Program-made: the position numbers and the translations under genes | Source: Eubacteriales bacterium | GTDB taxonomy: Bacteria > Bacillota > Clostridia > Oscillospirales > CAG-272 | Assembly: GCA_045589735.1 (NCBI GenBank) | Contig: JAZNPQ010000041.1 | Span: 1 to 37,600 of the forward strand | DNA length: 37,600 nucleotides | Direction of reading: 5' to 3' | Notes under the pieces: generated by a model | Seen by the model: the letters and a program-made list of their open reading frames with translations, nothing else | Databases searched by the model: none | Told to the model about the DNA's origin: nothing | Shown: positions 8,241 to 37,600 of the stretch, piece after piece | Numbering within the stretch: position 1 is the stretch's first letter | Layout: the number at the start of each line of letters is the position of its first letter

Positions 8241-8272
8241 AAGAAGGAAAACGCTAAAGCGTTTTCCTTCTT
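8241..8272. terminator. Bidirectional terminator
   Basis: AAGAAGGAAAACGC-TAAA-GCGTTTTCCTTCTT. Confidence 0.8.
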
Positions 8273-8276
8273 GAAA

Positions 8277-9908
<1,632 letters not shown>

Positions 9909-9918
9909 TTACCTCCGA

Positions 9919-10218
<300 letters not shown>

Positions 10219-17472: not shown

Positions 17473-17740
17473 TGTTTTTATTCCTGCTTTCTCTAAAAAA
17501 TGCGCATAATAATCTATTATAAATACATTATAATATATTTTCATTGATTTTTCAAGGGGTGTTTGAGAATTTAAGGTAAGTTAAGGTAAGAAAAAGCCGC
17601 TATCGCGGCGTGTTTAATCACGCTTTAATAACGGCTATACAATATTCATTTTGGCAAATCAATAATTATGCTTATTAAAGAGCAAGGGTATTACAGTAGT
17701 GGGGATTTCCAAAAATCTTTCAAGAAATCCTTTTATTCTC

Positions 17741-17769
17741 TTGAATTCTATATAACTTTGTGGTATAAT
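17741..17769 (+). promoter_or_regulatory. Sigma-A promoter of the islet gene and its leader RNA
   Basis: TTGAAT-17bp-TATAAT with extended TG. Confidence 0.7.
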
Positions 17770-17773
17770 GTAC

Positions 17774-17932
17774 TCGTCACACAAGTTCATATTATTTTAT
17801 CCGTAGGGAAAACTATCTTGGTAAAAGGTGTTTTCTCTCTTTGCTCATATCTACGGATAAGTGAGCTTGTGTGACGACAATGAGGGATTGCGCTTTTTCG
17901 GTGCGTTCCTCTCGGAGCGCACTTTTTATTTT
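17774..17932 (+). ncRNA. Putative structured 5' leader / attenuator RNA
   Basis: Nested stems 17774-17790/17861-17877 and 17797-17807/17850-17860; terminator-like hairpin 17901-17922 plus U tract before the RBS. Confidence 0.55.
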
Positions 17933-17945
17933 GGAGGAAGCATTT

Positions 17946-18956
17946 ATGAACTACAATCAAAATTATAATTACAGTCAAACTAACAAAACTCGTAACAAAA
18001 AGACAATTGTTATTGTGTTCGTTATTGTTGTGGCAGTTTTAGGAATCATAATAAGTAATATTATAGGCAATAGTGAAAACATGCAATCCGAAGAAACTAC
18101 CAATACGGATACCAATAATAATTTTTATGTTGGTGAAACAATGAACTATGACAACATTGATGTTACGGTAGACTCAATTTCCGAGACACAATATTCTCTG
18201 TCTTCAAATAATGAAAATGGGTACATCATAAAAGTGACCTTTACTTTAAAAAACAACGGAACGGAAGAGTTTTCGGTTGACGATGATTGTTTTGACCTTA
18301 GGACAGAAGATAAAAACGAGAGATATACTACTGAACAATTTTTATTTTATAGATCAATCATTGCGGGAGGGCAAGAAACATTTTGGTTACAATTTAAAGT
18401 TCCTTATTCAATGACTGAAAAAAATTATATCATGTATTTCGATTGGGGCTTTTTGCATACTGAACAAGCATACCATTTATATAACAGAGATGGTACTGCT
18501 GCAATAACAAAGCAGGAAGAAGCTGATGAAAACATCGATACAAATAATAAAGAGAAATATGAGAATATTTTTTCTGGTGGTTGCCCCGTGAATGTAAATG
18601 CTACATATCGTACTTCCTCTCAAGTATTATCTATACGTGCCAACAATCAAAGTAAAAAAACAATAGTTGCAATTAAGTATTTGATAGTTGTTTATGATGT
18701 CTATGGCGAAGTGTTACAAAAATATGATTACGGTGCTTCTTCATTAACTGCGACATATGATAAATTTAGCATAAACCCTGGTAGTGAAAGATTAGGAGAA
18801 TGGGAATTAAGTGGTTTTTCTGACGGCAAGTCAGTAGATATTTATGTGTTTAGTGTGTTGTATGATGATAATACTGAATGGGGCAGCAAGGATTTATCAG
18901 TAACTGATATAAAAAATTATGCACCCAAAACACATGTGACCGGTAGCTATTCTTAA
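17946..18956 (+). CDS. Membrane-anchored two-domain protein, DUF4352-like; AT-rich
   Basis: N-terminal TM helix; FYVGETMNY..VTV..IIKVTFTLKNNG pattern; GGAGG RBS. Confidence 0.7.
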   Translation: MNYNQNYNYSQTNKTRNKKTIVIVFVIVVAVLGIIISNIIGNSENMQSEETTNTDTNNNFYVGETMNYDNIDVTVDSISETQYSLSSNNENGYIIKVTFTLKNNGTEEFSVDDDCFDLRTEDKNERYTTEQFLFYRSIIAGGQETFWLQFKVPYSMTEKNYIMYFDWGFLHTEQAYHLYNRDGTAAITKQEEADENIDTNNKEKYENIFSGGCPVNVNATYRTSSQVLSIRANNQSKKTIVAIKYLIVVYDVYGEVLQKYDYGASSLTATYDKFSINPGSERLGEWELSGFSDGKSVDIYVFSVLYDDNTEWGSKDLSVTDIKNYAPKTHVTGSYS

Positions 18957-19082
18957 TACATCAACAAATCATAGCACCATCAAACAGTTTCCATATTTGT
19001 ATTGATTGCCTTGTTGTCTGAACAATAATGATACAAAGGATAAACTGCAAATTATTAAAATAAATTATGCCGAAAAAATCGG

Positions 19083-19112
19083 AAGGAGCAGGACATTGTC
19101 TTCTGCTCCTTT
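19083..19112. terminator. Terminator between convergent islet genes
   Basis: AAGGAGCAGGA...TCTTCTGCTCCTTT hairpin. Confidence 0.55.
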
Positions 19113-19170
19113 TATACTTTGTATAGTCTTAAAAAAGTATGTAAAATGCCTGTTTGATTTCATATTCACA

Positions 19171-20214
19171 TTATTTTCTAACCGGTAATTTCGACTTTCT
19201 TGTTGAACAGTTGAATCCGCATTGAGTTAAATAATCGTTTGTCGTGCTTATGATGCTTTCGTTATCGATAAATGGGCTTATTAATACTTCTTCCAAATAC
19301 GAAGTTCCATTTTCTACTATAAGGTCGATGTAAGGAATAGGCATTCCATTCTGCGTTCTATATTTTATACTTGGCATTTGATTTTTTAACAGTTCTGGTT
19401 TATTATAAGGCAAATAGAAAACAAATCTATATTCCTGTTCGGAAGAATAGCACTCATGTTTAAATTGAAATTGGAAATTCTTTAGTGCATACTGTATGAA
19501 TCCTTTAGATGCTTGATTTTTTTCGCTTTCTGATTGGTCGGAGTTTTGATAGGCGGAAAAGGCATCAACAATAATGTCTCTTAAAATTTGAAGCTTTTCT
19601 GAATCTTTGTAAATTACTTTATATGATTTAATTAAACTAAATATTGCATCTTCTTGGTAGTCGGAATACTCATAACTTTTGTATTTATCAAAAAGCAACG
19701 AATAACACTTTAATCCATAACCGCCATTACCTTTAGAATAATATCTCCACATGTCAAGGGAATCTTCTTTTAAAGAGAAGCTGCATATGAATGCGTGGCA
19801 TGAAACACAATCCAATACACTTTCATGAACATAATCTTCACGTGAGGGAATGGGAAAATTAACAAATTGACGATCTGGGATTTCTGCGTTATTTATAGCA
19901 TCATAAAAAGATTGAGAAATAGTTTTTTGCTGAAGAAGTTCAGCACACATTTGACGAAACAAGAATAAAATATGATTTCCCTCCGAAGTATCATTCAAAC
20001 AATCACTTCTTGTAAACCAAAAGTGAAGTTGCCCGTGCTCTTTGGGCTCGTTTCTTATGATACCCATCAGACCATCTGCACTTGTATAGTGCCATAACTT
20101 GAAAAAATGGGTATGTGTTTCATTATAATAATGTTTTTTATACAGATCTTTGAAATTAAGAATAGGGGCATTTACCATTTGCGATTGCATTTTATTTGTT
20201 TCTGTCATTTTCAT
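19171..20214 (-). CDS. DUF2971-like protein; AT-rich
   Basis: HYTSADG, LNDxSEG, CSFS..DSLDMWRYY and FKHxxYxxEQEYR motifs. Confidence 0.75.
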   Translation of the reverse strand: MKMTETNKMQSQMVNAPILNFKDLYKKHYYNETHTHFFKLWHYTSADGLMGIIRNEPKEHGQLHFWFTRSDCLNDTSEGNHILFLFRQMCAELLQQKTISQSFYDAINNAEIPDRQFVNFPIPSREDYVHESVLDCVSCHAFICSFSLKEDSLDMWRYYSKGNGGYGLKCYSLLFDKYKSYEYSDYQEDAIFSLIKSYKVIYKDSEKLQILRDIIVDAFSAYQNSDQSESEKNQASKGFIQYALKNFQFQFKHECYSSEQEYRFVFYLPYNKPELLKNQMPSIKYRTQNGMPIPYIDLIVENGTSYLEEVLISPFIDNESIISTTNDYLTQCGFNCSTRKSKLPVRK

Positions 20215-20223
20215 TCTCCGCTA

Positions 20224-21273
20224 TTAAAGATTTTTCATATACCTCGAATTTCTTCCGTCGCCGATTTTCTTAATGCTTCCGTTTTTTACCATCTGACCGA
20301 GGACTGCTTCCACGGTGGTGGGACTGACGTCGGGGAGAATCTTACAGATTTCTGACTTGGAGATTGGTATCAAACTATTAAGAACTGTGGCTTCGACACG
20401 GCTTTTCTTGGTGATCTTCTTGCCGTTGACGATAGCAAAACGCTTGTCAAGCTCCTTATAGCACATATAAAGCGTAGAGAGGAAGTTTTCGATGAAGGGG
20501 AAATAGTCGTTTTCGTTCGTATCCCATCCGTCCGAGGATTGCTTCAATGCCTCGTAATAGAAACCCTTGTAGTTGTTGATCTGTTCCTCGAAGGAAACAT
20601 ATTTACCCGCGTCAAATCCATTTTTATAAAGCAAGAGAAGTGAGAGCAGACGAGATAGTCTTCCGTTTCCGTCACGGAATGGGTGTATGCACAGAAAATC
20701 AAGAATCACGCAGGGGATCAGCAAAAGCTGGTTGATATTTGCATCATTTCTCGCGTCAAGATAGGCAAGCTCAAGCTGTTCCATCGCTTGCTTAACCTCG
20801 CGAGCGGGCGTGGGGCGGAAGCGAATGCGACGGTTTCCGTCGGCATCGACTTCCAAAATGACGTTATCATCGGTCTTATATTTGCCGCCAAATTCATATC
20901 CCGCAATCGACATCATCGTTTCGTGCAAACGGAGAATATCGCCCTCGCGGAAGTCGATATATTCGTGTCCCGTGTGAATGGCATTCAGCGCGTCGCGGTA
21001 TCCCGCTATCTCCGCCTCATTATGATTGAGAGGTGCGCTGGTGCCGCTGACGATTGCGGCAATTCTGTCGTCGCTCGTTACGATACCCTCAATGGCATTT
21101 GAACTTTTGACCGACTGTATTTTTGCAACCGCTTCAAGTTCGGTGAATATCTTGGCGTATTCATCTTTGCGAACACCCGCCATTGTTTTCAATTCTGTAA
21201 TGCCCGCAGTTAGATTGACGAGCCGAGCGGGGAGCAGACCGTTATTCAAAAAAGAGTAATCAAATTTTCTCAT
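20224..21273 (-). CDS. Fic-domain protein (class II) with C-terminal winged HTH
   Basis: HPFRDGNGRLSR catalytic motif; SSNAIEG inhibitory (S/T)xxxE(G/N) helix; C-terminal ISKSEICKILPDVSPTTVE...IGDGRNSRY. Confidence 0.92.
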   Translation of the reverse strand: MRKFDYSFLNNGLLPARLVNLTAGITELKTMAGVRKDEYAKIFTELEAVAKIQSVKSSNAIEGIVTSDDRIAAIVSGTSAPLNHNEAEIAGYRDALNAIHTGHEYIDFREGDILRLHETMMSIAGYEFGGKYKTDDNVILEVDADGNRRIRFRPTPAREVKQAMEQLELAYLDARNDANINQLLLIPCVILDFLCIHPFRDGNGRLSRLLSLLLLYKNGFDAGKYVSFEEQINNYKGFYYEALKQSSDGWDTNENDYFPFIENFLSTLYMCYKELDKRFAIVNGKKITKKSRVEATVLNSLIPISKSEICKILPDVSPTTVEAVLGQMVKNGSIKKIGDGRNSRYMKNL

Positions 21274-21289
21274 ATTCATTCCTCCATAT

Positions 21290-21373
21290 CTGCATATAGT
21301 ATACCACAAAATATGCAGTTTGTCAAGCAAATGGCGAAGTTTCTTTGCACATAAATTTTCAAACAATATGCAA
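21290..21373 (-). promoter_or_regulatory. fic promoter with two putative palindromic operators
   Basis: TTGACA(21326-21321)-17-TATACT(21303-21298); CTGCATAT-N13-ATATGCAG (21290-21318) and TTGCACAT-N13-ATATGCAA (21345-21373). Confidence 0.65.
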
Positions 21374-23798: not shown

Positions 23799-24491
23799 AT
23801 GTTGGATACAAAAATTCTAATTATTGACGACGATCCTACTATTTGCGAATTACTTAAAGATTATCTTGAAAAGGAAGGCTATGAGGTAAAAGCTGTAAAC
23901 GACGGCGTTGACGGCATAAACTTTTTTAAGATTTATGAGCCGGATCTTGTCCTTCTTGATATTATGCTCCCGAAAAAGGACGGATATCAAGTCTGCCGAG
24001 AAATTCGTGAGGTTTCAGGTAAGCCCATTATTATGATAACTGCCAAGGGGGATGTTATCGATAAGGTTATCGGTCTTGAGCTCGGTGCTGACGACTATCT
24101 GGTAAAGCCATTTGATATGAAGGAGCTTTCTTCACGTATCAAGGCAGTCCTCAGACGCTATTATATACATACCAAGCAGTATGATGAGGAGATAATCAAA
24201 TTTGAAAATATCGAAATAAGTCTCCAGAAATATGAGCTTAAATTAGGTGGCAGATCTGTGGATATTCCACCGAAGGAGCTTGAGCTTCTCTACTTCCTCG
24301 CATCTAACTATAACAGAGTATTTACACGCGATCAGCTTCTCGATAAGGTCTGGGGCTTTGATTACCTCGGAGACTCCCGCACGGTTGACGTTCACGTAAA
24401 GCGTCTTCGCGAAAAGCTTGAAGGTGTTTCCGACAAATGGGTACTGAAAACCGTTTGGGGTGTCGGATATAAATTTGAGTTGCTTAACTGA
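23799..24491 (+). CDS. OmpR/PhoB-family response regulator
   Basis: IDDD, LLDIMLP, GADDYLVKPF, SRTVDVHVKRLREK, TVWGVGYKF. Confidence 0.97.
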   Translation: MLDTKILIIDDDPTICELLKDYLEKEGYEVKAVNDGVDGINFFKIYEPDLVLLDIMLPKKDGYQVCREIREVSGKPIIMITAKGDVIDKVIGLELGADDYLVKPFDMKELSSRIKAVLRRYYIHTKQYDEEIIKFENIEISLQKYELKLGGRSVDIPPKELELLYFLASNYNRVFTRDQLLDKVWGFDYLGDSRTVDVHVKRLREKLEGVSDKWVLKTVWGVGYKFELLN

Positions 24492-27785: not shown

Positions 27786-27992
27786 GTGAAATATTCGGCG
27801 TTGCCGAATGTGAAATAATTCACGTTGTGAATTGTGAAATATCTCACTTCGTTCGATGTGAAATAAAATTCGCCTTTTCACATTTGCGAAGCAAATATTT
27901 CACAGCGAAGCTATTCACATGGCGAAGCCATATTTCACTCGCCGAAGGCGAATTTCGTTGAAAAAAGCACTTGCAATGCAAGTGCTTTTTTC
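27786..27992. repeat. REP-like multi-hairpin element built from GTGAAAT/ATTTCAC units, ending in a terminator
   Basis: Four GTGAAAT copies, then ATTTCAC/ATTCAC copies with GCGAAGC mini-hairpins; GAAAAAAGCACTTGCA...TGCAAGTGCTTTTTTC at 27960-27992. Confidence 0.65.
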
Positions 27993-28013
27993 TGGTGGGG
28001 GATGGTGGATTCG
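27993..28013 (-). repeat. 21-bp duplicate of the tRNA-Tyr 3' end
   Basis: TGGTGGGGGATGGTGGATTCG identical to 28169-28189. Confidence 0.9.
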
Positions 28014-28168
28014 TGACCCTCGCGAGCGTCGCTTCGCTCCTTATCGCTTTCAAGAACGCTTATTATACGATTTGTTTTTTTGTTTTCCTGCGTTCTTGTT
28101 TCGGTGTTCCTTTCGCCCACCTTTTCCACCAAATAAAAAACCAAGCCTTTTGGGCTTGGTCTTTTATT

Positions 28169-28253
28169 TGGTGGGGGATGGTGGATTCGGACCACCGAAG
28201 TCAGTGACAACAGATTTACAGTCTGCCCCCTTTGGCCGCTCGGGAAATCCCCC
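28169..28253 (-). tRNA. tRNA-Tyr(GTA)
   Basis: GGGGGATTTCCCGAGCGGCCAAAGGGGGCAGACT-GTA-AATCTG...long variable arm...CCACCATCCCCCACCA. Confidence 0.96.
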
Positions 28254-28284
28254 ATTATTAACCGACCTCTGCGGGTCGGTTTTT

Positions 28285-28359
28285 TGGAGCTGGTGATCGG
28301 AGTCGAACCAACAACCTGCTGATTACAAATCAGCTGCTCTGCCATTGAGCCACACCAGC
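28285..28359 (-). tRNA. tRNA-Thr(TGT)
   Basis: GCTGGTGTGGCTCAATGGCAGAGCAGCTGATT-TGT-AATCAG...GTTCGACTCCGATCACCAGCTCCA. Confidence 0.97.
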
Positions 28360-28443: not shown

Positions 28444-29058
28444 TTAAAATTTCTCTCCTTTTAGCTCTTTCAGCGTAGAAAAAGTCCCTTCTTTTATGCC
28501 TCTGCAAACCGTTACTGTATATTTCCCCTCTATTTCAAAGCTGTCGTACGCAACCGATTCGTCTTTTTCACTGTCAAGCTCGTGTGACTGTCCGCCTTTG
28601 TACTTATAATACGCTTCCTTTCTCGTCCATACCGTCGCAAAGCCCTTGGCACTCTCTCCTGCTCTGCTCCTTTCCCTCTCCGAAAAAAATCTTTCCTTTA
28701 TTTTTTCATATTTAGTGTCTGTCGGAATCTTTTCTATATCAACACCGACATTTCCTTCCGTTGACACCGCACAGACCGCGTATTCTCCCGAATGTGACAG
28801 ACTGAAGCTTATATCTTCTCTATTTAGGAAGTACGGTCGGCCGTATTCGTCCTTTTTATATTTCATCGTGGAGATATCTTCATGGAATTCATTTTTCAGC
28901 GTTTTTGCAAGCAGAAAAAGAGCCGCACAGCTTTCATTTATCGAAGCTCGGCTTTTTCTTTTTTTGATTTCCTCAATATATTCCCGACAGTCAAAAGCTA
29001 CGCAAAGCTGCAGGGGGTCTATACTGTCTTTTATTTTGCAATAGGTCAACGCTTTCAT
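28444..29058 (-). CDS. Sfp-type 4'-phosphopantetheinyl transferase
   Basis: YGRPY, FSLSHSG, VGVDIE, WTRKEAYYK. Confidence 0.92.
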   Translation of the reverse strand: MKALTYCKIKDSIDPLQLCVAFDCREYIEEIKKRKSRASINESCAALFLLAKTLKNEFHEDISTMKYKKDEYGRPYFLNREDISFSLSHSGEYAVCAVSTEGNVGVDIEKIPTDTKYEKIKERFFSERERSRAGESAKGFATVWTRKEAYYKYKGGQSHELDSEKDESVAYDSFEIEGKYTVTVCRGIKEGTFSTLKELKGEKF

Positions 29059-29116: not shown

Positions 29117-29172
29117 TTTGGCACTGTTTGGCACTTTATGGCACTGTCGGTTTTTATACCGCGTGTTAAAAT
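29117..29172 (+). promoter_or_regulatory. Putative activator-dependent promoter: three phased direct repeats plus extended -10
   Basis: TTTGGCACTG/TTTGGCACTT/TATGGCACTG at 10-bp period (29117-29146); TGtTAAAAT at 29164-29172; no canonical -35. Confidence 0.6.
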
Positions 29173-29203
29173 CTACTCGCACAAGCAACCAAGGAGGTGA
29201 ATC

Positions 29204-29584
29204 GTGTGCACAGATGATCTTGATGCAATTTGTCAGATGAAGCGACTATCCGAGCTTGCCGAAAAATATATTCTCGCCTGCCGCGAGGACAAGGACTTCG
29301 GAAAGCAGGGACGCTTCCCAAACATTGCAGGATTTTGCCGTTTCTTCGGCTTTCCCGGTGACTCGCTTGACAAAATAAAGCGCGAGTATCCCGACAGTTA
29401 TTCGGCTCTGTGCCTTATTTTCGAAGACGAGGCGCTTAACTCGGACGTTTCTGCGTCGGTGCTATCGGCGTATTTAAAAAAGCGTCTCGGATACAGTGAG
29501 GAAAAGGAAAAAACCGACTCCTCGCTGAGCTTCGAGCAGTTAAAATTGGTTTTTGAGCATGACATCGTCGCCGACGGAGAATGA
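29204..29584 (+). CDS. Putative terminase small subunit / DNA-packaging protein
   Basis: 126 aa directly upstream of and overlapping TerL; AAGGAGGTG RBS; FPNIAGFCRFFG HTH-like segment reminiscent of P22 gp3-type TerS. Confidence 0.6.
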   Translation: MCTDDLDAICQMKRLSELAEKYILACREDKDFGKQGRFPNIAGFCRFFGFPGDSLDKIKREYPDSYSALCLIFEDEALNSDVSASVLSAYLKKRLGYSEEKEKTDSSLSFEQLKLVFEHDIVADGE

Positions 29585-30893
29585 ACCGAGGATAGTCAGA
29601 ATACCGGGTAAGCCAAATCCGAAGCAAGCAGAATTTTTTGCCTCACGCGCAAAGTACACTGCATACGGCGGCGCTCGCGGCGGCGGAAAATCCTGGGCGC
29701 TTCGACGTAAGCTTGCCGCGCTCTGTCTGCGCTATCCCGGAATATCCTGTTTGCTTGTGCGTCGGACTATGGCAGAGCTCAAGACCAATCATCTTATTCC
29801 CATGCTCCGAGAATACGGTGCGTTTATGACCTATTCGGAGTCTGACAAACGCATCGTCTGCTCAAACGGCAGTACTATCACTCTCGGATACTGTTCTTCC
29901 TCACGGGATACTCTCAGGTATCAAGGTCAGGAATTCGACATTATCGCCCTTGACGAAGCAACGCAATTTGGCGAACATCAATTTTCTGTTTTTAAGGCTT
30001 GTCTGCGAGGGGTAAACGAATTCCCAAAACGTATGTACCTGACCTGCAATCCCGGCGGAGTGGGACACGCATGGGTAAAACGTCTCTTTGTTGACCGTGA
30101 TTTCCGTACGGGAGAAGAACCAAAGGACTATCTTTTTATTCCTGCCGTTGTTTACGACAACAGCGTACTGATGTCAAGCTGTCCAGAATATATAGCGCAG
30201 CTTGAAAGCCTGCCGCCGCGTCTGCGCGATGCATGGCTTCACGGTAAATGGAACGTATTTGAAGGACAGTTTCTTCCCGAATTCGATATCGAACGTCACG
30301 TCACGGATAACGCCGTCCCCACTAAAAAATTGCGGCATTTTATCGCGTTTGACTACGGCTTTGATATGCTTGCGGCGCTTCTTATCGCGGTTGACGGTGA
30401 CAGGCTTATCGTTGAATCCGAATATTGCGCTCCGAATCTCACGCTGTCGGAAGCAGCAGAACGTGTTGCGGCGCTGTCGGGTGGACTTGCGGAGTATGCC
30501 GTTGCGTCGCCTGACCTGTGGAATCGCCGTCAGGACAGCGGTAAAAGCGGTTTTGAGATAATGCAACAGGTAAAAGGTATGCCGCCTATGACTCCCGCTG
30601 ACGACCGTCGTATTCCCGGTTGGCGAATGCTTCGTGAATATCTTTCGAGCTCATCCGGCGATCCGCGTTTGATTATTTCAAGCCGTTGCTATGAGCTGAT
30701 ACGATGTCTGCCTGCTCTTCTTTGCGATACTTTGCGCCCGGAGGATGCGGCGGGAGAGCCTCATTCGGTCACGCACGCGCCCGAGGCTTTGCGATATGCG
30801 GTAATGAGCCGTATAGCGATGCCTTACGATAGAACCGTCGGACAGTTTAGCTTTAAAAAGCGAACTAACACGGCACTAAACCATTTAAACTGA
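29559..30893 (+). CDS. Phage terminase large subunit
   Basis: PNPKQ Q-motif, Walker A YGGARGGGKS, Walker B IIALDEA, LTCNPGG motif III, nuclease FDYG. Confidence 0.93.
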   Translation: MTSSPTENEPRIVRIPGKPNPKQAEFFASRAKYTAYGGARGGGKSWALRRKLAALCLRYPGISCLLVRRTMAELKTNHLIPMLREYGAFMTYSESDKRIVCSNGSTITLGYCSSSRDTLRYQGQEFDIIALDEATQFGEHQFSVFKACLRGVNEFPKRMYLTCNPGGVGHAWVKRLFVDRDFRTGEEPKDYLFIPAVVYDNSVLMSSCPEYIAQLESLPPRLRDAWLHGKWNVFEGQFLPEFDIERHVTDNAVPTKKLRHFIAFDYGFDMLAALLIAVDGDRLIVESEYCAPNLTLSEAAERVAALSGGLAEYAVASPDLWNRRQDSGKSGFEIMQQVKGMPPMTPADDRRIPGWRMLREYLSSSSGDPRLIISSRCYELIRCLPALLCDTLRPEDAAGEPHSVTHAPEALRYAVMSRIAMPYDRTVGQFSFKKRTNTALNHLN

Positions 30894-30903
30894 AAGGACT
30901 TTT

Positions 30904-32655
30904 ATGCCAAAAAAAAGTAAAAATCATTATACACACCACTTTACTCCCAATGGATTTGGAGGTATCGACCTCAAAAATCCGAAGCAAAACGCCTCGGAGG
31001 TCTACAATTTCAGAATAATGCCCGACGGTTCCATAATGAAGCGTCAAGGCTTTAAGCGGCTGGCAACTCTTTCCGAGGCTCCGACTTACTTCGGTATATT
31101 CAATATAAATTCGTCGGAGGTTGGGCTCGCCGTGATCGGAAAGAAAATTTTTGAGGTCGATCTTGAAAGCGGTGAATGCTCCCAATATATGGGCACTCTT
31201 GATGCAAAGGCAACGAATTGCGATATAGTTTTCTATAACGAAAATATATTGATATTTGACGGTACGCATGCAAAGCTCGTAAAAGACGGAGAGGTACAGG
31301 ATTTTAACGGTTATGTCCCTCTATACGGCAAAGCATGGCACCCTACCGGTGGCGGTCCTGTGCATGAACAGCTTAATATTGTCTCAGAGCGCTACCGTGT
31401 AAATTATTCTCTTTCGTCTGACACCGACAAAATACGTCTGCCGAACAATGCAGACTATATAGATTACGTCGAGGTTAACGGAGAAGCGCTATATAGCGAC
31501 GACTATTCCTTTGACCGAAGCACAAAGTTCGTACATTCAGAGAAATTTTCTTCAGACGGCGGAAGCGTTACCTTTTGGATCTCCTTCGAAAACGAAGAGA
31601 TTTCTACACTGCACAGCTGCACTAAGGCTCTGGCGGTCAGCTCAGGAAGCAGTCCGGTTATATTTTGCTACGGCAGAAGCGGGAGAGACGGTATCTTTTG
31701 TCTCCGTTCCGTTCCCGTTTCGGAGGAAGAAAGACGGAATATGCACTACGTATATTCCGATGAATTTGATCTATATATTCCCTACGGCGGCTCTTTTACA
31801 GTCGGTAGCGGTGAAAATACGATACGCGCAGTCATTCCTTATGACGAACGCGTCATAGTATTCACAGATCACGACGCATGGTTCGTTCCTATAATAAGCA
31901 ACTCGGTAATGCCCGAAACACTTAATAAAAGTATCGGTTGTTCTTCTCCTTACGGCGTCGCATACTGCGGAGAATCCCCCGTTACAGTATGTCACAACCG
32001 TCTCTTTATATGGACTCCTACGCTTGATCCCTATAATCCTTTAAACGCTGTCAGCGTTTCAAATTCGGTCGAGCTTCAGGAAGCCGAAGCCGATAAATTT
32101 ATAAAGGTGTTTGTAAATCGATACGGCAGTGAGCTTTGGATATTTAACGAAAGCTCCGAGACCGATAACATTTTGATATATGACTATGAGGCTGAAAAAT
32201 GGTTCAGCTTCGGTGATTTCTATCCAAGCTTTATATTCAATTACGGCGGACAGGTAGGCTTTGTCGAAGGCAGCGGAATTTTTCTGTTCGATGACGACGC
32301 CGTATACGATGAAAGAATTGACGGAATACCTCAATATATCTCGGCTGTATATACGTCGGCTTGGGCAAAAATAGACGACACGGGAAAGATAAAACATGCT
32401 GACCGTCTTATCACTGAGGCGTATTCGGGCAGGGGCGGAAGGATCTCTATAACTCTTGTTTATAATTACGGAAGTACAGATGATGCCTTATATACCGTTA
32501 CCGAAGCCTCGCTCTCTCCGCAGATATTCGTAAAGCGACTGCCTCATTCACGCTTCAGAGAAGTTCGCTTTACCATAACCGCAGACGGCGCAAGCAGTGA
32601 ACGTATATATGACGTTGCGCTTGAGCTGACGGTCGATGACGGAAATCAATGCTGA
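30904..32655 (+). CDS. Putative podoviral nozzle/hub (P22 gp10 / tail tubular B-like) beta-propeller protein
   Basis: N-terminal FGGID...NF...DGSIMKRQG pattern, IGCSSPYGV and LIYDY..KW motifs; beta-rich 583 aa; phage context. Confidence 0.6.
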   Translation: MPKKSKNHYTHHFTPNGFGGIDLKNPKQNASEVYNFRIMPDGSIMKRQGFKRLATLSEAPTYFGIFNINSSEVGLAVIGKKIFEVDLESGECSQYMGTLDAKATNCDIVFYNENILIFDGTHAKLVKDGEVQDFNGYVPLYGKAWHPTGGGPVHEQLNIVSERYRVNYSLSSDTDKIRLPNNADYIDYVEVNGEALYSDDYSFDRSTKFVHSEKFSSDGGSVTFWISFENEEISTLHSCTKALAVSSGSSPVIFCYGRSGRDGIFCLRSVPVSEEERRNMHYVYSDEFDLYIPYGGSFTVGSGENTIRAVIPYDERVIVFTDHDAWFVPIISNSVMPETLNKSIGCSSPYGVAYCGESPVTVCHNRLFIWTPTLDPYNPLNAVSVSNSVELQEAEADKFIKVFVNRYGSELWIFNESSETDNILIYDYEAEKWFSFGDFYPSFIFNYGGQVGFVEGSGIFLFDDDAVYDERIDGIPQYISAVYTSAWAKIDDTGKIKHADRLITEAYSGRGGRISITLVYNYGSTDDALYTVTEASLSPQIFVKRLPHSRFREVRFTITADGASSERIYDVALELTVDDGNQC

Positions 32656-32679
32656 ATTTAGAAAGAAAGGAATTACACT

Positions 32680-34239
32680 ATGAAAAGCAACACAACATCT
32701 ACCTGGCGGCAGTATGAAGCCGGTAAAGACTACAAACGCCGCATAGGCCTTTACGAAACGGTCAGACGCAACGAACGGTATTACAGAGGTGACCAATGGT
32801 ACGGGGCGGCTCTTCCGGATCTTCCACGTCCCATCTTCAACGTAATAAGACGTATCGTCGATTACCAGATATGCACCGTTATTTCGGGAAATCTATATAT
32901 CAACTATACCGACGAGGATCTTCCCTACGCCGACAATTCCGCAACACGTCAGATGATGCTTTCGGGCACCGAGCTTCTTACAAAAAACGCAGCGTACCGT
33001 TGGGAGCGTGAAAAGCTCGATAACGTTATGTACCGTCTCATGCTCGACGCCGCTATCTCGGGTGACGGAATTCTGTATTGTTGGTGGGATCCGTCAATTC
33101 GTACGGGACAGCCTTATGCAGGTGACATCGTAACCGAAACCGTCGACAACTCTAATCTTTTTGTTGCCGACGTCAACAGCACAGATCTGCAGTCTCAGGA
33201 ATATATCATTCTTTCGGGTCGTGACAGTGTATCTTCGCTAAGACGCGAAGCAAAAAAATACGGTGCGAGCGAAAGCGAGCAGAAAAAAATAATACCCGAC
33301 AGCGAATTTGACTGCGGTTCGGGAGACCTTTCGGAGTATGAGCTTGAGGACGAGGATTTCGCAAAGGCTACTTACCTTATAAAATTCTGGCGTGAGGACG
33401 GCTACGTTATGTTTGAAAAATCCACTCGCCACACAGTCATAAGACGCGGCCCTACCGGTATGAGACTTTATCCCGTAGCCTACTTCAACTGGTATCCTAC
33501 AAAGGACAGCTTCCACGGCACACCGCCCGTTTCGGGAATGATAGCAAATCAGAAGTTTATCAACAGAGCCTACGCCCTTATAATGAAGCATATGACAGAC
33601 ACCGCATTTTCCAAGGTCATTTACGACAAATCAAAAATACCCGAATGGTCAAATGAGGTAGGTGAGGCTATTGCCGCCATTGGCGGGGGTAATATTTCAG
33701 ATTCGGTCTCGGTCGTCGGCGTCGGTCAGATGCAGGACGGTTATCTTGAGCTTATCGAAAATGCCATAGCCCTTACAAAAGAGCTTAACGGAGCAACCGA
33801 TACGGCTCTCGGTAATACAGACCCTACAAACACAAGCGCGATTCTTGCGATGCAGGAAGCAGCGCGTGTTCCTCTTATGCAGGTTCGTTCTTCGCTTTGC
33901 CGCTGTATTGAGGAGCTTGCGTCTATCTGGGCTGAAATGATCTTTCTCTATTATCCAAAGGAGCGCCTCGTTCCATATAGGGAAAACGGAGAGATACACG
34001 CCGAATGCTTCTCGTTTGATAAAATGAAGGATGCGCTTATATGCTCTCACGTTGAAGTAAGCAACATAGAGCGTTCCTCTCCTGTCGCAACGCAAAGCAT
34101 ACTCGATAAGCTTCTCGACGGAGGTCATATCGGTGCCGACACCTATATATCTCTCCTGCCTCAAGGCATTATTCAAGCAAAAGAAGAAATTATAGAAAGC
34201 ATCAAAAGAGAAAGGAAACAAAGCATAAATGAACAGTGA
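32680..34239 (+). CDS. Phage portal protein (P22-like)
   Basis: NERYYRGDQW, PIFNVIRRIVD, DAAISGDG, NQKFIN, SAILAMQEAA; helical 519 aa; position in operon. Confidence 0.85.
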   Translation: MKSNTTSTWRQYEAGKDYKRRIGLYETVRRNERYYRGDQWYGAALPDLPRPIFNVIRRIVDYQICTVISGNLYINYTDEDLPYADNSATRQMMLSGTELLTKNAAYRWEREKLDNVMYRLMLDAAISGDGILYCWWDPSIRTGQPYAGDIVTETVDNSNLFVADVNSTDLQSQEYIILSGRDSVSSLRREAKKYGASESEQKKIIPDSEFDCGSGDLSEYELEDEDFAKATYLIKFWREDGYVMFEKSTRHTVIRRGPTGMRLYPVAYFNWYPTKDSFHGTPPVSGMIANQKFINRAYALIMKHMTDTAFSKVIYDKSKIPEWSNEVGEAIAAIGGGNISDSVSVVGVGQMQDGYLELIENAIALTKELNGATDTALGNTDPTNTSAILAMQEAARVPLMQVRSSLCRCIEELASIWAEMIFLYYPKERLVPYRENGEIHAECFSFDKMKDALICSHVEVSNIERSSPVATQSILDKLLDGGHIGADTYISLLPQGIIQAKEEIIESIKRERKQSINEQ

Positions 34240-34783
34240 AATTTTAAATCAGGAAGAAGCTATAGAACTGTCTTCCCTTCCTGTAGAAGAAAACGAAGCT
34301 CCCGAACCAGAAGTAGAACCCGAACTCGAACCGGAATCGGAGGATATTCCAACAAGTGACGAGCTTCCTTGTGTGGAAATCGAAGATACTCCAAAAGAAG
34401 TTACACCTGAGGACGAACCCGATTCGGAATCTGAAAACTATCTTAACAGTCTTATACGTGAAGAACGTATATCAAACGAATATGCGGAATTTAAATCGCT
34501 TTTCCCCGGCGTGTCGGTCAGCGAGCTTCCCGACAGTGTACTGAGCAGTGTCAAAAACGGAGTTCCGCTCTCTGCGGCTTATGCGCTTTATGAACGCCGC
34601 CGCGCTATGTCAGAAGCTGTTGCGTCAGGAGTGAACCAAAAGAATCGCGAGCTTTCCTTCGCGGTAAAAAGCGGAAAAACAACCGAAGTATATTTTTCAC
34701 CCGACGAGGTAAGACAAATGTCTGCCTCTGAGGTCAAAGCAAATTATTCAAAAATAATCGACTCAATGAGTCATTGGAACTAA
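34229..34783 (+). CDS. Putative capsid scaffolding protein
   Basis: Acidic EP-rich N-terminus; C-terminal FSPDEVRQMSASEVKANYSKIIDSM helix; between portal and capsid. Confidence 0.7.
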   Translation: MNSEILNQEEAIELSSLPVEENEAPEPEVEPELEPESEDIPTSDELPCVEIEDTPKEVTPEDEPDSESENYLNSLIREERISNEYAEFKSLFPGVSVSELPDSVLSSVKNGVPLSAAYALYERRRAMSEAVASGVNQKNRELSFAVKSGKTTEVYFSPDEVRQMSASEVKANYSKIIDSMSHWN

Positions 34784-34815
34784 AATAAAAAAATTAGTAA
34801 AATTGGAGGAATTTT

Positions 34816-35664
34816 ATGGCTATTAAAAACTTTATTCCCACAGTATGGAGCGAAACTCTTTATGAACAGCTCGATAAACAGTATATCGCGGTACGTAACT
34901 GTAACCGTGATTTTGACGGCGAAATCAAGGAACAGGGCGGCACAGTAAAGATCTGCGGAGTTGGAAATATCAATATATTCGATTACACAAAAAACACCGA
35001 TATAAGCAATATGCAGACCCTTTCCGATTTATATGCTGAAATTGTTATTTCACGTGCCCGCGCATTCAATTTCCAAATAGATGACATTGACCGCGCGCAG
35101 GCTAATCCCAAGCTTATGAAAGCTGCTATGAAGGTCGCGGCATCGGCTCTCGCAAATGACGCCGATAAGTACGTTTTCTCTTTGTATCAATACGCTGATA
35201 TTGATAACCACCTTACTTGCAAGGACACGACTGCCGAAAACATCGTTGACCATATAATTGCCGCGAGAGAATTGCTTTTCGACAACAATGTCACAAACAA
35301 TGACGAGGTCGTTCTTGAGGTCTCGCCTCAGATCGCATCTTTTATCCTCAAAGCAAAGATATCGCTTTCCAACGATATCTCCGACACTGCTCTTTCAAGC
35401 GGTGTTCTCGGCACTATTGCAGGCTGCAAGGTGTACGTTTCCAACAATATACATAAAGAAGAAGAAGAAATCGACATAATATATCACAAGTGCATGATGA
35501 GAACAAAGCGCGCTATCGCTTTCGCGGAACAGCTTTCCGAGATCGACGCATACCGTCCCGAATCGAGATTCGCCGACGCTGTCAAGGGTCTCCATCTCTA
35601 CGGTGCCAGTGTCATTTATCCCAAAGAGGTCGTTCTTCTCAATCTCGGTGTATCCGTGGCTTAA
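34816..35664 (+). CDS. Major capsid protein (HK97 fold, P22 coat gp5-like family)
   Basis: NFIPTVWS, NRDFDGEI..GGTVKI, FNFQIDDIDRAQ, GTIAGCKVYVSNN, FADAVKGLHLYGA; strong GGAGG RBS. Confidence 0.9.
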   Translation: MAIKNFIPTVWSETLYEQLDKQYIAVRNCNRDFDGEIKEQGGTVKICGVGNINIFDYTKNTDISNMQTLSDLYAEIVISRARAFNFQIDDIDRAQANPKLMKAAMKVAASALANDADKYVFSLYQYADIDNHLTCKDTTAENIVDHIIAARELLFDNNVTNNDEVVLEVSPQIASFILKAKISLSNDISDTALSSGVLGTIAGCKVYVSNNIHKEEEEIDIIYHKCMMRTKRAIAFAEQLSEIDAYRPESRFADAVKGLHLYGASVIYPKEVVLLNLGVSVA

Positions 35665-35674
35665 TATCTAACAA

Positions 35675-36061
35675 ATGACAGTCAGGGACATTTATAATTC
35701 AGCACTCTGTCTTATCGGGGAGAACTCCGAATCCGAAAATGATTCAGATTATTCCGAAAGAGCTACCTATATCGTTGCTATATTTTGCGATAAGATAGCT
35801 CACATAGACCGTTCCTACCGCGAAAGTCACCGCCTTGACGAGCAGAAAAGCTTTAATGAGGTGTGCCTTGAACTCGATACAGAGTTTCCGCTGAGCCCCC
35901 GTTTTGCGGATTCGGCGAGTCATTATCTTGCCGCGATGCTCGTGCTATATGAAAACGAGGTCCTTCACGATAAGCTCTTTTCTATGCACTGCGATCTGCT
36001 TGCCAATGCAATAAGTGAAATACCTTATCTCAAGGAAAAGATCAAGAACGCATACTGCTGA
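35675..36061 (+). CDS. Putative head-to-tail adaptor protein
   Basis: MTVRDIYNSALCLIGE start typical of adaptor proteins; helical 128 aa; follows capsid gene. Confidence 0.6.
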   Translation: MTVRDIYNSALCLIGENSESENDSDYSERATYIVAIFCDKIAHIDRSYRESHRLDEQKSFNEVCLELDTEFPLSPRFADSASHYLAAMLVLYENEVLHDKLFSMHCDLLANAISEIPYLKEKIKNAYC

Positions 36062-36071
36062 TAAAAATTTG

Positions 36072-36112
36072 GGCTACCTCAATGAAAATTGGGGTAGCCT
36101 CTTTTATTTTTT
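36072..36112 (+). terminator. Intrinsic terminator closing the capsid operon
   Basis: GGCTACCTCAAT-GAAA-ATTGGGGTAGCC followed by TCTTTTATTTTTT. Confidence 0.8.
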
Positions 36113-36124
36113 ATCAAAACATGG

Positions 36125-36153
36125 TTGAAATTTGACATTTTATATGGTATAAT
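36125..36153 (+). promoter_or_regulatory. Sigma-A promoter of the PqqD cassette
   Basis: TTGAAA-17bp-TATAAT with extended TG. Confidence 0.7.
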
Positions 36154-36175
36154 ATTAAATGAGGAGTGATTTTCT

Positions 36176-36901
36176 ATGTTTTATATAAAGATGGCGGAGC
36201 TTAATATAGGCATCGACAACAAATACGCTTATCTTAAAGAGCTGTGCCGTGACTATCTCACAGAATGCGACACACCCGACCTTACCGTCTCTGTAACGGA
36301 AGAGCAAATAAAGGCCGAGCAAGAGGACTCTCTTTCGACAGGTGTCGTTGCAAGCGCGCCTTATGCCGAAAGTATTTGTATGTACCGTGAGATATGTAAC
36401 CGTATACACGAATATGACGCCTTTCTGTTTCACGCCTCGGTCATTGAATGTGATGGACGGTCATACGCCTTTGCGGCTGCAAGCGGCACAGGTAAGTCAA
36501 CGCACACAGGACTTTGGCTTAAGCATTTCGGAGACCGCGCAAGAATTATAAACGGCGACAAGCCCATCATGCGATTTGCCCACGGTGAGCTTCGCGCGTA
36601 CGGAACTCCTTGGTGCGGCAAAGAGGGGTATAATATAAACGACAGCTCTCCTCTCGCAGCGGTCTGCTTCCTTGAAAGAGGAAAAACCAACACCATACGA
36701 AAGCTTGAAAGCGATGAATCCGTTATGCGTCTTTTCCCTCAAATACTGTTGCCGACAGACGAGGGCGCTATAGACCTTCTCTTCCCGCTCGTAGAAAAAA
36801 TGATAGAAACTATCCCCTGCTACTGTCTTGCCTGTACCATATCCGACGAGGCTGTTACAGTAGCGTATAACGCCATGAGCCAAAATACTCAGAATCAATG
36901 A
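36176..36901 (+). CDS. HPr-kinase-related P-loop protein
   Basis: LFHASVI, FAAASGTGKSTH, INGDKP, YGTPWCGK, ICFLERG-like motifs. Confidence 0.75.
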   Translation: MFYIKMAELNIGIDNKYAYLKELCRDYLTECDTPDLTVSVTEEQIKAEQEDSLSTGVVASAPYAESICMYREICNRIHEYDAFLFHASVIECDGRSYAFAAASGTGKSTHTGLWLKHFGDRARIINGDKPIMRFAHGELRAYGTPWCGKEGYNINDSSPLAAVCFLERGKTNTIRKLESDESVMRLFPQILLPTDEGAIDLLFPLVEKMIETIPCYCLACTISDEAVTVAYNAMSQNTQNQ

Positions 36902-36914
36902 AAGGAATTTTCTT

Positions 36915-37181
36915 ATGAAAAGAAAACCCGGCTTTATAGTCAGAAAAATATCCGGGCAAAACGTCGCCGTTGCTATCGGTGAGGCTTCAAAAAGCTTTCA
37001 CGGAATGATAAAGCTCAACGACACGGGACTTATAATCTGGAATACGCTCGCAAAGGACGTGACCGAGGATGATATCGTCGCAGCAATCCTTGAGCAGTAC
37101 GACGTTGCACCCGAGAAAGCGGCAGAGGACGTACACAAATTCGTTGAGGTGCTTAAGGATGCGGGAATCGTTATCGAGTGA
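36915..37181 (+). CDS. PqqD-family protein (RiPP recognition element)
   Basis: 88 aa; LNDTGLIIWNTL...ILEQYDV...AAEDVHKFVEVL. Confidence 0.88.
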   Translation: MKRKPGFIVRKISGQNVAVAIGEASKSFHGMIKLNDTGLIIWNTLAKDVTEDDIVAAILEQYDVAPEKAAEDVHKFVEVLKDAGIVIE

Positions 37182-37600
37182 GTTTTCACTTGCCGAAGCC
37201 GAAGAGCTTATCGTCGAGGTGCTTGAATCGGGCGGCGAATTCGAGCTGTATCCTCGCGGCACGAGTATGCTTCCGCTTATCGTTCAGGGACGCGATTCTG
37301 TCACGCTTGTAAAGCCTGACGGCCGTCTTTTTGAAGATGATATAGCTTTTTACAAAAGAGCCGACGGCAGCTTTATACTCCACAGAGTTATGTCGGTTGA
37401 AAAAGACAGCTATACGATGTGCGGCGACAATCAGCTCGTACTTGAGCCCGGAATAACCGACGCGCAGATAATTGGTGTCGTCTCGTCACTTTTCGTAAAG
37501 GGCAAAAAAATAGGCGTAACAAGCAAATCCTACAAAAGATATATAAAACGCCGCAAAAATCTTAAATGGCGTCGCATACTTCTGAAGTTTGCAAGGCATA
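37159..37600 (+). CDS. S24/S26-family signal-peptidase-like protein (runs off window; absent from the ORF track)
   Basis: ATG at 37159 with GAGGTG RBS; translation MRESLSSEF...PRGTSMLPLI...FILHRV...MCGDNQ (Ser, His-Arg and GDN motifs). Confidence 0.8.
   Translation, partial: MRESLSSEFSLAEAEELIVEVLESGGEFELYPRGTSMLPLIVQGRDSVTLVKPDGRLFEDDIAFYKRADGSFILHRVMSVEKDSYTMCGDNQLVLEPGITDAQIIGVVSSLFVKGKKIGVTSKSYKRYIKRRKNLKWRRILLKFARH

Follow-up and report, generated by a model that had tools for sequence, protein, structure and literature searches.

A seven-gene particle cassette of gut Clostridia that resembles a pared-down gene transfer agent

The window analysed here, a 37.6-kb stretch of DNA (37,600 nucleotides) from an Eubacteriales bacterium, carries close to its 3′ end a compact cassette of seven genes, termed g1 to g7, for the packaging, head and tail functions of a phage-like particle. 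We consider it probable, from comparative sequence evidence, that positions 29119–36110 are a domesticated, chromosomally fixed operon of the gene transfer agent (GTA) type, which would produce a small, short-tailed, DNA-filled particle of the same kind as FpGTA of Faecalibacterium prausnitzii in a pared-down form. The kind is already known through FpGTA; what is new is the minimal seven-gene, differently regulated and very widespread form. Head, packaging and tail genes are present, no gene for replication, integration or lysogeny lies in or beside the cluster, and the contiguous lysogeny, replication and lysis modules of an intact prophage are absent. The window is the entire contig C41 of a 156-contig, 1.58-Mb draft genome that is 88% complete, and the contig ends 1.5 kb 3′ of the cassette, so that whether the cassette is minimal can be judged only from its relatives. 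Contig truncation was rejected as the cause, since relatives on long contigs show the seven genes between host genes on both sides and the minimal form is therefore not an assembly artefact.

Gene content of the cassette

All seven open reading frames (ORFs) lie on the + strand, at 29204–36061, with gaps of 10–32 nt or overlaps between neighbours, and none of the seven is frameshifted (Table 1). The labels given to them in a first-pass annotation made from the window alone were borne out by profile searches and by structural comparison with Foldseek, that of g5 as a scaffold through its position and termini only. Selection was gauged by the ratio of non-synonymous to synonymous substitution (dN/dS) in 10 close pairs of loci; of the 70 cells that these give with seven genes, 55 were scored and 15 were left unscored. 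Relatives were drawn from a species-level genome collection containing 501 of them, and the best 80, together with the window, form a set of 81 loci in which all ORFs were clustered.

Three genes are identified by sequence profiles. The large terminase TerL (g2) matches PF03237 (E=1.7e-10), PF04466 (6e-10) and phrog_979 (4e-44), with a dN/dS of 0.04–0.16, and its start is probably the ATG at 29559 rather than the TTG at 29553. The portal (g4) matches PF16510 P22_portal (1.5e-11) and phrog_156 (5.5e-27), with a dN/dS of 0.03–0.14. The major capsid protein (MCP; g6) matches phrog_267 (1.3e-46) and PF19821 (2.8e-6), has a dN/dS of 0.01–0.19, and has relatives in 3,905 clusters (90% identity) at E≤1e-10.

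The nozzle and the adaptor were recognized by fold. No family match was obtained for g3, and a PDB profile search returned 7z47_G only (E=0.0048). Its AF2 model (pLDDT 83.3, pTM 0.81) was compared with the PDB by Foldseek, and ranks 1–31 are all podovirus nozzle or tail-hub chains (E=1e-19 to 8e-11), including P22 gp10, Sf6 gp8, T7 gp12, SU10, Pam1, Pan3, GP4, VP1 and crAss001; the comparison with the P22-type nozzle 8eap_D gave E=1.5e-16, and TM on target reached 0.70. The length of g3 is conserved across genera at sequence identities of 21–26%. This strong fold match of the model points firmly to a podovirus nozzle. The AF2 model of g7 (pLDDT 84.6) is a four-helix fold for which Foldseek ranks 1–22 are all podovirus adaptors (P22 gp4, Sf6 gp7 and others), but with E values of 0.046–0.8; the Foldseek probability against adaptor chain 9pgg_Ax is 0.98. 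No match to g7 was found in the PDB profile search, the complex predicted for portal and g7 scored 0.02, and its dN/dS is 0.10–0.17. A gp4-like adaptor is consistent with these data and moderately indicated, the best match (E=0.046) being weak. The cassette would encode a P22-like tail-hub set of a P22-type portal, a gp4-type adaptor and a gp10/gp12-type nozzle, with strong support for portal and nozzle. No needle or plug, tailspike or fibre is found among its ORFs.

The small terminase g1 is supported from several sides. PF16677 is matched by 5 of 10 members of the g1 family, all below the cut-off (best E=4.9e-5), and the window protein aligns over the full profile, likewise below the cut-off (E=0.02). 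Among its 30 neighbours in the language-model Atlas, 20 fall in clusters with PF16677 (scores 0.97–0.98). The gene lies directly 5′ of TerL in 65 of the 81 loci, its dN/dS is 0.05–0.33, and we take its PNxAGFCR motif to recall the N-terminal helix-turn-helix (HTH) of small terminases. A PDB profile search gave a DUF1244 chain as sole match (E=0.61). With moderate support, g1 is probably a small terminase (TerS) of the P22 gp3 type. The protein g5, for which profile searches gave no family match, has an acidic, disordered and variable N-terminus and a helical, conserved C-terminus (dN/dS 0.09–0.41); these features and its position between portal and MCP suggest a scaffold. An NCBIfam search of g1, g3, g4, g5, g6 and g7 gave no match. 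Shine-Dalgarno sites are clear except in front of g2 and g7, so the good ribosome-binding sites claimed at first hold for the other five genes.

Distribution and genomic context

The best 80 of the 501 relatives all come from metagenome-assembled genomes (MAGs) of uncultured gut Clostridia, Eubacteriales or Oscillospiraceae, sampled from humans, deer, sheep, yak, cattle, horse and chicken. In a set of 61 related genomes, 30 have an MCP relative, the window's own being counted in both numbers. Where present, the cassette recurs as a block in ten fetched loci (L013–L022) with conserved orthologue lengths, and in the single contig of genome G007 (L015) the order runs Sfp, g1–g7, translocase, TauE, sulfatase, oxidoreductase and GH3. 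Among the 81 loci, many of which are cut by contig ends, MCP was found in 81, portal in 76, g7 in 75, g5 in 73, TerL in 68, g1 in 65 and g3 in 64. The recurrent neighbours are Sfp (22 loci), HprK (16), PpiC (13), RecX (10) and RecA (9), followed by AP endonuclease, PHP, GFO/IDH, Der, Obg and inorganic pyrophosphatase, and no phage tail, lysis, integrase or replication family recurs beside the cassette in this set. The host-type flanks noted at first sight recur, with housekeeping genes on both sides in relatives.

The window itself has the same character. The cassette is preceded by Sfp (28444–29058, − strand), two tRNA genes and ordinary host genes. Behind it come a P-loop protein weakly related to ScmC/HprK, a chaperone of the PqqD family, and an S24-like ORF (a weak match) that is truncated where the contig stops. 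This trio (36125–37600) also lies 3′ of the cassette in genomes G001 and G009 and is treated as a separate host cassette with its own promoter. Pfam scans of the window ORFs revealed no integrase, excisionase, replication or lysogeny genes, and no repeats bracket the cassette in the window, which agrees with the first-pass claim that lifestyle genes are missing. The tetranucleotide correlation of the cassette to the genome (r=0.933) is host-like, the value for 200 random 6.9-kb genome pieces being 0.914±0.051, and the early impression of a host-like composition, unlike that of an AT-rich islet upstream (r=0.675), was correct.

Two lineage-specific arrangements were seen. In three loci of a nozzle-free clade (L073, L078 and L091, 10837–12087 in the last) an adaptor-like domain forms the C-terminus of a 416-aa ORF, the N-terminal ∼310 residues of which have no Pfam match. 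In some other lineages (L019, 2946–6412; L021, 9550–12024; G059:C22) a glycine-rich PF21722 protein and an Amidase_3+LysM or M15 peptidase adjoin the cassette. PF21722 (Gly_rich_2) was considered as a general marker of a second locus and rejected, as it occurs in only 3 of the 61 genomes and always adjoins the cassette.

Descent and selection

Several measures indicate that the cassette has diverged together with its hosts. The portal and the MCP become less similar to those of the window as the housekeeping GTPase YchF of the same genomes does, with rho=0.89 (n=24) and 0.66 (n=26) respectively, the p-values being overstated because related genomes are not independent. Cassette distances also correlate with those of adjacent host genes (HprK, r=0.71; PpiC, 0.67; Sfp, 0.43), values that 0 of 2000 permutations reached in each case; for RecA the correlation is 0.19 and not significant (7 loci with a tiny range). 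In a FastTree tree of TerL, portal and MCP from 68 loci the clades correspond to host neighbourhoods, with all eight RecX-flanked loci in one clade and four u326-flanked loci in another, and the arrangement in which Sfp, pointing away, adjoins g1 occurs in several deep clades. All 55 scored dN/dS cells lie between 0.01 and 0.41, those of g1, g3, g5 and g7 together between 0.05 and 0.41, and the genes are intact, so that the relaxed selection or pseudogenisation that the first-pass annotation had listed among refuting outcomes is not seen. Vertical inheritance under purifying selection is indicated by these sequence comparisons, qualified by patchy presence and by some incongruence.

Promoter and terminator

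The dedicated promoter region proposed upstream of g1 is real and conserved but is not sigma-70-like. The spacer between Sfp and g1 has no + strand match to a sigma-70-type −35/−10 pair; it holds three phased direct repeats followed by an extended −10 box (Table 1). Among 61 loci with g1, three or four TGNNAC hexamers phased at 10 nt were found in 37, of which 26 have four, compared with 3 each among 277 random regions and 305 shuffles. Enrichment is seen at period 10 only, with none at 8, 9, 11, 12 or 13 nt. The repeated word varies by lineage (TGGCAC, TGAGAC, TGGGAC, TGTCAC or GGTACT), and the distance from repeats to −10 box is conserved at 22–24 nt in three-repeat loci and 11–14 nt in four-repeat loci. 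Anchoring of 24 four-repeat loci on the −10 box gave a T-rich tract, 4×TGnnAC, ∼12 nt, G-TAaAAT and a CACA element, the last of which probably marks the transcription start region. On this geometry the array would cover roughly −60 to −25, in place of a −35 element. Phased boxes that abut a −10 box with no −35 suggest an activator-dependent promoter, with the array as putative activator binding sites, and we presume from the geometry a resemblance to the tandem sites bound by winged-helix response regulators, PhoP among them.

Two candidate regulators were set aside. An orphan OmpR-type response regulator in the window (23799–24491) has 73–87% identical orthologues in nearly all genomes of the family, cassette-free ones included, and is not a dedicated activator. 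A sigma-54 reading of TGGCAC does not agree with a box that occurs in three or four copies at 10-nt steps and in the variants TGAGAC, TGGGAC and TGTCAC. It is possible that the repeats serve TerS as a pac site; the fixed distance to the −10 box favours the promoter role. No description of the phased array and promoter of the seven-gene cassette was found in the literature, and the word 'promoter' does not occur in the main text of the FpGTA paper (PMC12946183). When sequencing runs were searched for the words of the window, the largest share of the sampled words in any run was 21%, and none of the runs was RNA. At the 3′ end, the terminator and the separate promoter of the downstream cassette that had been proposed were both found.

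Table 1. Coordinates of the cassette genes and of the associated expression signals in the window.
Feature	Position	Strand	Description
Activator box array (putative)	29119–29144	+	Three direct TGGCAC boxes, starts 29119, 29129 and 29139; exact 10-nt period
Extended −10 box	29164–29172	+	TGTTAAAAT (TGnTAAAAT); hexamer 29167–29172; 22 nt 3′ of last repeat; −35 hexamer absent
GCACA(A/G) element	29179–29185	+	Conserved just 3′ of −10 box; from anchored consensus of 24 loci
g1	29204–29584	+	126 aa; small terminase-like (P22 gp3/GP3_package type)
g2	29553–30893	+	Large terminase TerL; 446 aa from TTG 29553
g3	30904–32655	+	583 aa; predicted podovirus tail nozzle/hub, beta-propeller type
g4	32680–34239	+	519 aa; P22-type portal
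g5	34229–34783	+	184 aa; scaffold-like; between portal and MCP
g6	34816–35664	+	282 aa; MCP (HK97/'P22 coat' type)
g7	35675–36061	+	128 aa; predicted four-helix head-to-tail adaptor (P22 gp4/Sf6 gp7-like)
Intrinsic terminator	36071–36100	+	13-pair stem and T-run; closes operon
Separate downstream promoter	36125–36153		Drives next gene trio

Relation to phages and to longer relatives

The nearest phage capsid proteins are at most 41% identical and come from long-tailed phages (AP45, D6E, phiCP39-O and mycobacteriophages), so that the first-pass term podovirus-type, which suits portal, adaptor and nozzle, does not extend to the MCP. A tblastn search of 50,697 phage records with the nozzle g3 gave no match. 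The IMG/VR relatives that share at least 50% MCP identity are all on 4–10-kb contigs carrying cassette genes, and viral contigs of 30–66 kb reach at most 44% MCP identity with no match to g1, g3 or g7. By these comparisons the cassette is distinct from the sampled phages. Searches of the window's own genome for further terminase (PF03354), portal (PF04860) and tape-measure (PF10145) genes found none, and its four tyrosine-integrase matches are all on other contigs.

A longer form of about ten ORFs occurs in the same-order relatives G045 (a single-contig genome), G053, G055 and G057 and in the virome record MT836592.1. In G045 (L193, G045:C1:1636000–1655999) the genes run from a sigma factor and an HTH TerS-like ORF through TerL, portal, scaffold, MCP, adaptor, a small ORF and the nozzle to a Collar-domain fibre; the sigma factor is of the ECF type, a divergent pair of XRE and Peptidase_M78 (ImmA-type) genes adjoins, and host genes lie beyond. 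By gene content the G045-type cassette is best placed as an intermediate between a phage and the minimal cassette. No relatives of the sigma factor, XRE/ImmA switch and fibre of these longer loci were found in the genome that contains the window or among the loci fetched from its cassette clade, and the phased TGNNAC array is absent from the G045-type loci of the same order. The window form thus looks like a further reduced and re-regulated derivative. Four ORFs at the TerS position of same-order loci gave an incoherent alignment, which was discarded, and the match of the g1 profile to the L195 ORF (hhalign) is weak (probability 21%, E=0.0011).

MT836592.1 (L107, 1–9588), deposited as 'UNVERIFIED Bacteriophage sp.' from a human faecal virome, is unannotated and holds a whole longer-type cassette, its start lying about 50 nt 5′ of its TerS-position ORF. 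It was considered as a bridge to FpGTA and rejected; the nearest named relative of its MCP is a protein of Acidaminobacterium chupaoyuni (74%).

Comparison with known systems

RcGTA and other alphaproteobacterial GTAs are domesticated head-tail gene clusters that are inherited vertically, lack replication and integration genes and are activated in trans. RcGTA is siphovirus-like, comprises ∼15 kb and further loci, is regulated by GafA/CtrA, and has a head too small for its own cluster. The cassette resembles RcGTA as an apparently domesticated structural cluster with no replication or integration genes and with predicted trans-activation, but it has another capsid lineage and would have another regulator, and its seven genes may fit their own head. 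The tail hub of P22 and Sf6 (portal gp1, adaptor gp4 and nozzle gp10) is matched by the portal family PF16510 and by the predicted folds of nozzle and adaptor; unlike those phages, the cassette encodes no equivalents of the needle (gp26), tailspike (gp9) or ejection proteins, and its MCP is nearest to those of long-tailed phages. Capsid-forming phage-inducible chromosomal islands (PICIs) are small islands with their own TerS, TerL, portal, scaffold and capsid genes that keep integrase and replication genes and borrow helper tails. The cassette is likewise a small chromosomal unit with these five gene types, but it lacks an integrase or replication gene and has its own nozzle. A comparison with satellites is also raised in bioRxiv 10.64898/2026.07.08.737213.

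The closest parallel is FpGTA, which is described as an experimentally shown podovirus-like GTA-like element (Borodovich et al., Nat Commun 2026; PMC12946183). In the literature searched, the name FpGTA appears in this paper alone. According to that account, operon I comprises 10.5 kb and ten ORFs (TerS, TerL, portal, scaffold, MCP and short-tail components), operon II of 5.5 kb carries baseplate, fibre, receptor-binding protein (RBP), holin and endolysin genes, and the particles measure ∼40 nm and contain 8.4–8.9 kb of DNA (PMC12946183). The present cassette shares with FpGTA, likened by published description only, an origin in gut Clostridia, an operon of TerS, TerL, portal, scaffold, MCP and short-tail genes, and a lack of replication or integration genes. 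In strain ATCC 27766 the FpGTA portal and MCP accessions (RCH50849.1 and RCH50851.1) are two apart, which fits one gene between them. As far as the description goes, the cassette differs in having seven ORFs in 6.9 kb and a nozzle between TerL and portal, and no second locus was found for it; the longer form of G045 and MT836592.1 is nearer to it than the window cassette is. No Faecalibacterium name occurs among the 120 best matches listed in either MCP search, and no description of the seven-gene cassette itself was found in the literature.

Proposed function and alternatives

We propose that an unlinked activator would bind the three or four phased TGNNAC boxes that replace the −35 element and so turn the operon on in some cells. 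The capsid protein would assemble on the portal, aided by the scaffold, and TerS and TerL would package DNA into the head, most of it from the host, by a headful mechanism. Adaptor and nozzle would then seal the portal as a stub tail, the particle would leave through lysis functions encoded elsewhere or through host autolysins, and the DNA would be delivered to related cells and integrated by RecA. We advance more tentatively, and with considerable doubt, that this may be the smallest complete GTA system known, in which seven genes suffice; that it was fixed in the ancestor of a large group of gut Clostridia; that phage control (sigma factor and XRE/ImmA) was swapped for a host activator reading a fourfold 10-bp-phased TGNNAC array; and that it may be the missing gene set behind the GTA-like DNA packaging of Oscillospiraceae and Christensenellaceae and, as an operon shorter than one likely headful, may move itself between kin.

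A number of observations weigh against a fixed GTA-like operon, and the first of them is its distribution. MCP matches occur in only 17 of 36 other genomes of the family and 6 of 9 others of the same genus, and 12 family genomes that are at least 94% complete have no MCP match, 8 of them having no portal match either. The first-pass annotation had itself named patchy presence among close relatives as telling against a domesticated particle locus, and that is what was observed, about half of the family being without the cassette; compactness, purifying selection, co-divergence with the host and composition speak for its proposal. The MCPs of G006 and G007 are nearer to that of the window than those of G002 and G005 are, though their YchF is more distant. 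The closest pair (the window and L023) is mosaic, with 95–98% protein identity in g1, g2 and g4 and 78–80% in g3, g5, g6 and g7, and dS climbs from 0.2 to 0.9 along the operon, which together suggest recombination between cassette variants. Moreover, two host blocks have the cassette on one side in some clades and on the other side in others: Sfp-PHP-c28 in L031, L043, L053, L057, L059 and L060 versus L070 and L081, and HprK-PpiC-u326 in L042, L068 and L090 versus L074, L086 and L100. The unit or its neighbours have thus undergone local inversion or shifting, with clean boundaries. Intact genes under purifying selection would also be expected of a mobile element.

These observations could be accounted for by an integrase-free mobile element, a satellite or miniature defective phage that packages itself, spreads horizontally and draws insertion, replication and lysis from host recombination or a helper. 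Its 6.9 kb would fit one small head, being shorter than the 8.4–8.9-kb FpGTA headful, and could be packaged whole, unlike classical GTAs, the capacity of the present head being judged by analogy. Cassette-sized contigs occur in virus collections (MT836592.1 of 9.6 kb, from the faecal virome, and L108–L117 of 4–10 kb), and a sigma factor, an XRE/ImmA switch and a fibre gene persist in relatives of the same order. Nevertheless, neither the window nor the 81 loci showed an integrase, an excisionase, a replication gene or repeats on the flanks, the composition is host-like, the distances track adjacent host genes and the clades match neighbourhoods, and a cassette with its own tail hub is not a tail-stealing capsid-forming PICI. 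We regard such an element as unlikely.

Still less likely, in our assessment, is a domesticated particle that benefits its host other than by transfer, as a PBSX-like killing device, a device for DNA release or lysis, or a decoy for phage assembly. The evidence for domestication serves this explanation as well as it serves a GTA, and two further points weigh against the latter. Of the 68 loci with TerL, portal and MCP, 6 show no detectable nozzle. No locus for a fibre or RBP, holin or endolysin was found in the 88%-complete genome by tblastn with the accessory genes of L018, L019, L021, L013 and G045 and by family searches, nor was an unlinked activator gene. Of the first-pass proposal that fibres, lysis and activator come from elsewhere, the last is supported by a promoter that appears activator-dependent, and none of the three was recovered in this genome. 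A PBSX-like action was left open for FpGTA by its authors (PMC12946183). Against a particle of this sort, TerS, TerL and portal are conserved under strong constraint, which indicates DNA-filled heads.

The end of the contig 1.5 kb after the cassette, and the tRNA genes 0.85 kb upstream, would suit a prophage remnant in decay or a full prophage of which only the left end was assembled. Either is very improbable and is ruled out as far as sequence data can show, given seven intact genes with dN/dS far below 1, orthologue lengths conserved where the cassette is present in L013–L022, relatives in which long contigs continue into host genes at either end, and a downstream trio that is a separate promoter-driven cassette found also in G001 and G009.

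A GTA-like operon, if that is what the cassette is, bears on gene flow in the gut. GTA-like packaging is reported to be common in gut Clostridia, with a gene cluster tied to it only in Faecalibacterium, and has been described with no identified cluster in Gemmiger, CAG-115, Ruminococcus callidus, Onthomonas, Christensenellaceae and Oscillospiraceae (PMC12946183). Further GTA-like carriage in gut Clostridia has been reported, with a candidate 14-kb core cluster and a 3.6-kb lysis cluster in Coprocola (bioRxiv 10.64898/2026.07.08.737213). The cassette, present in hundreds of uncultured species, is a concrete candidate for the machinery of other lineages and offers a minimal parts list for a short-tailed, DNA-carrying particle, while its sharply defined promoter motif is a handle on the regulator that decides when particles are made. 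If it transfers DNA, genes would flow through human and ruminant gut communities by a major route that has so far gone uncounted.

Other features of the window

The AT-rich islet at 17600–20200 (GC 0.327, tetranucleotide r=0.675) is clearly foreign, in contrast to the cassette; DUF4352 and DUF2971 proteins are encoded there, and a Fic-domain gene lies just past it (20224–21366). The tRNA genes 5′ of the cassette are tRNA-Tyr (28169–28253, −) and tRNA-Thr (28285–28359, −), between a kinase-like gene and Sfp. A 29-nt copy (93%) of the 3′-end stretch of tRNA-Tyr at 27985–28013, 176 nt away and not bracketing the cassette, resembles the footprint of an old att-type site. Two ORFs of 136 and 125 aa called within 27985–28359 are spurious. 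The 579-aa + strand ORF at 8271–10010 is an antisense artefact of the GroEL gene (−, 8277–9902).

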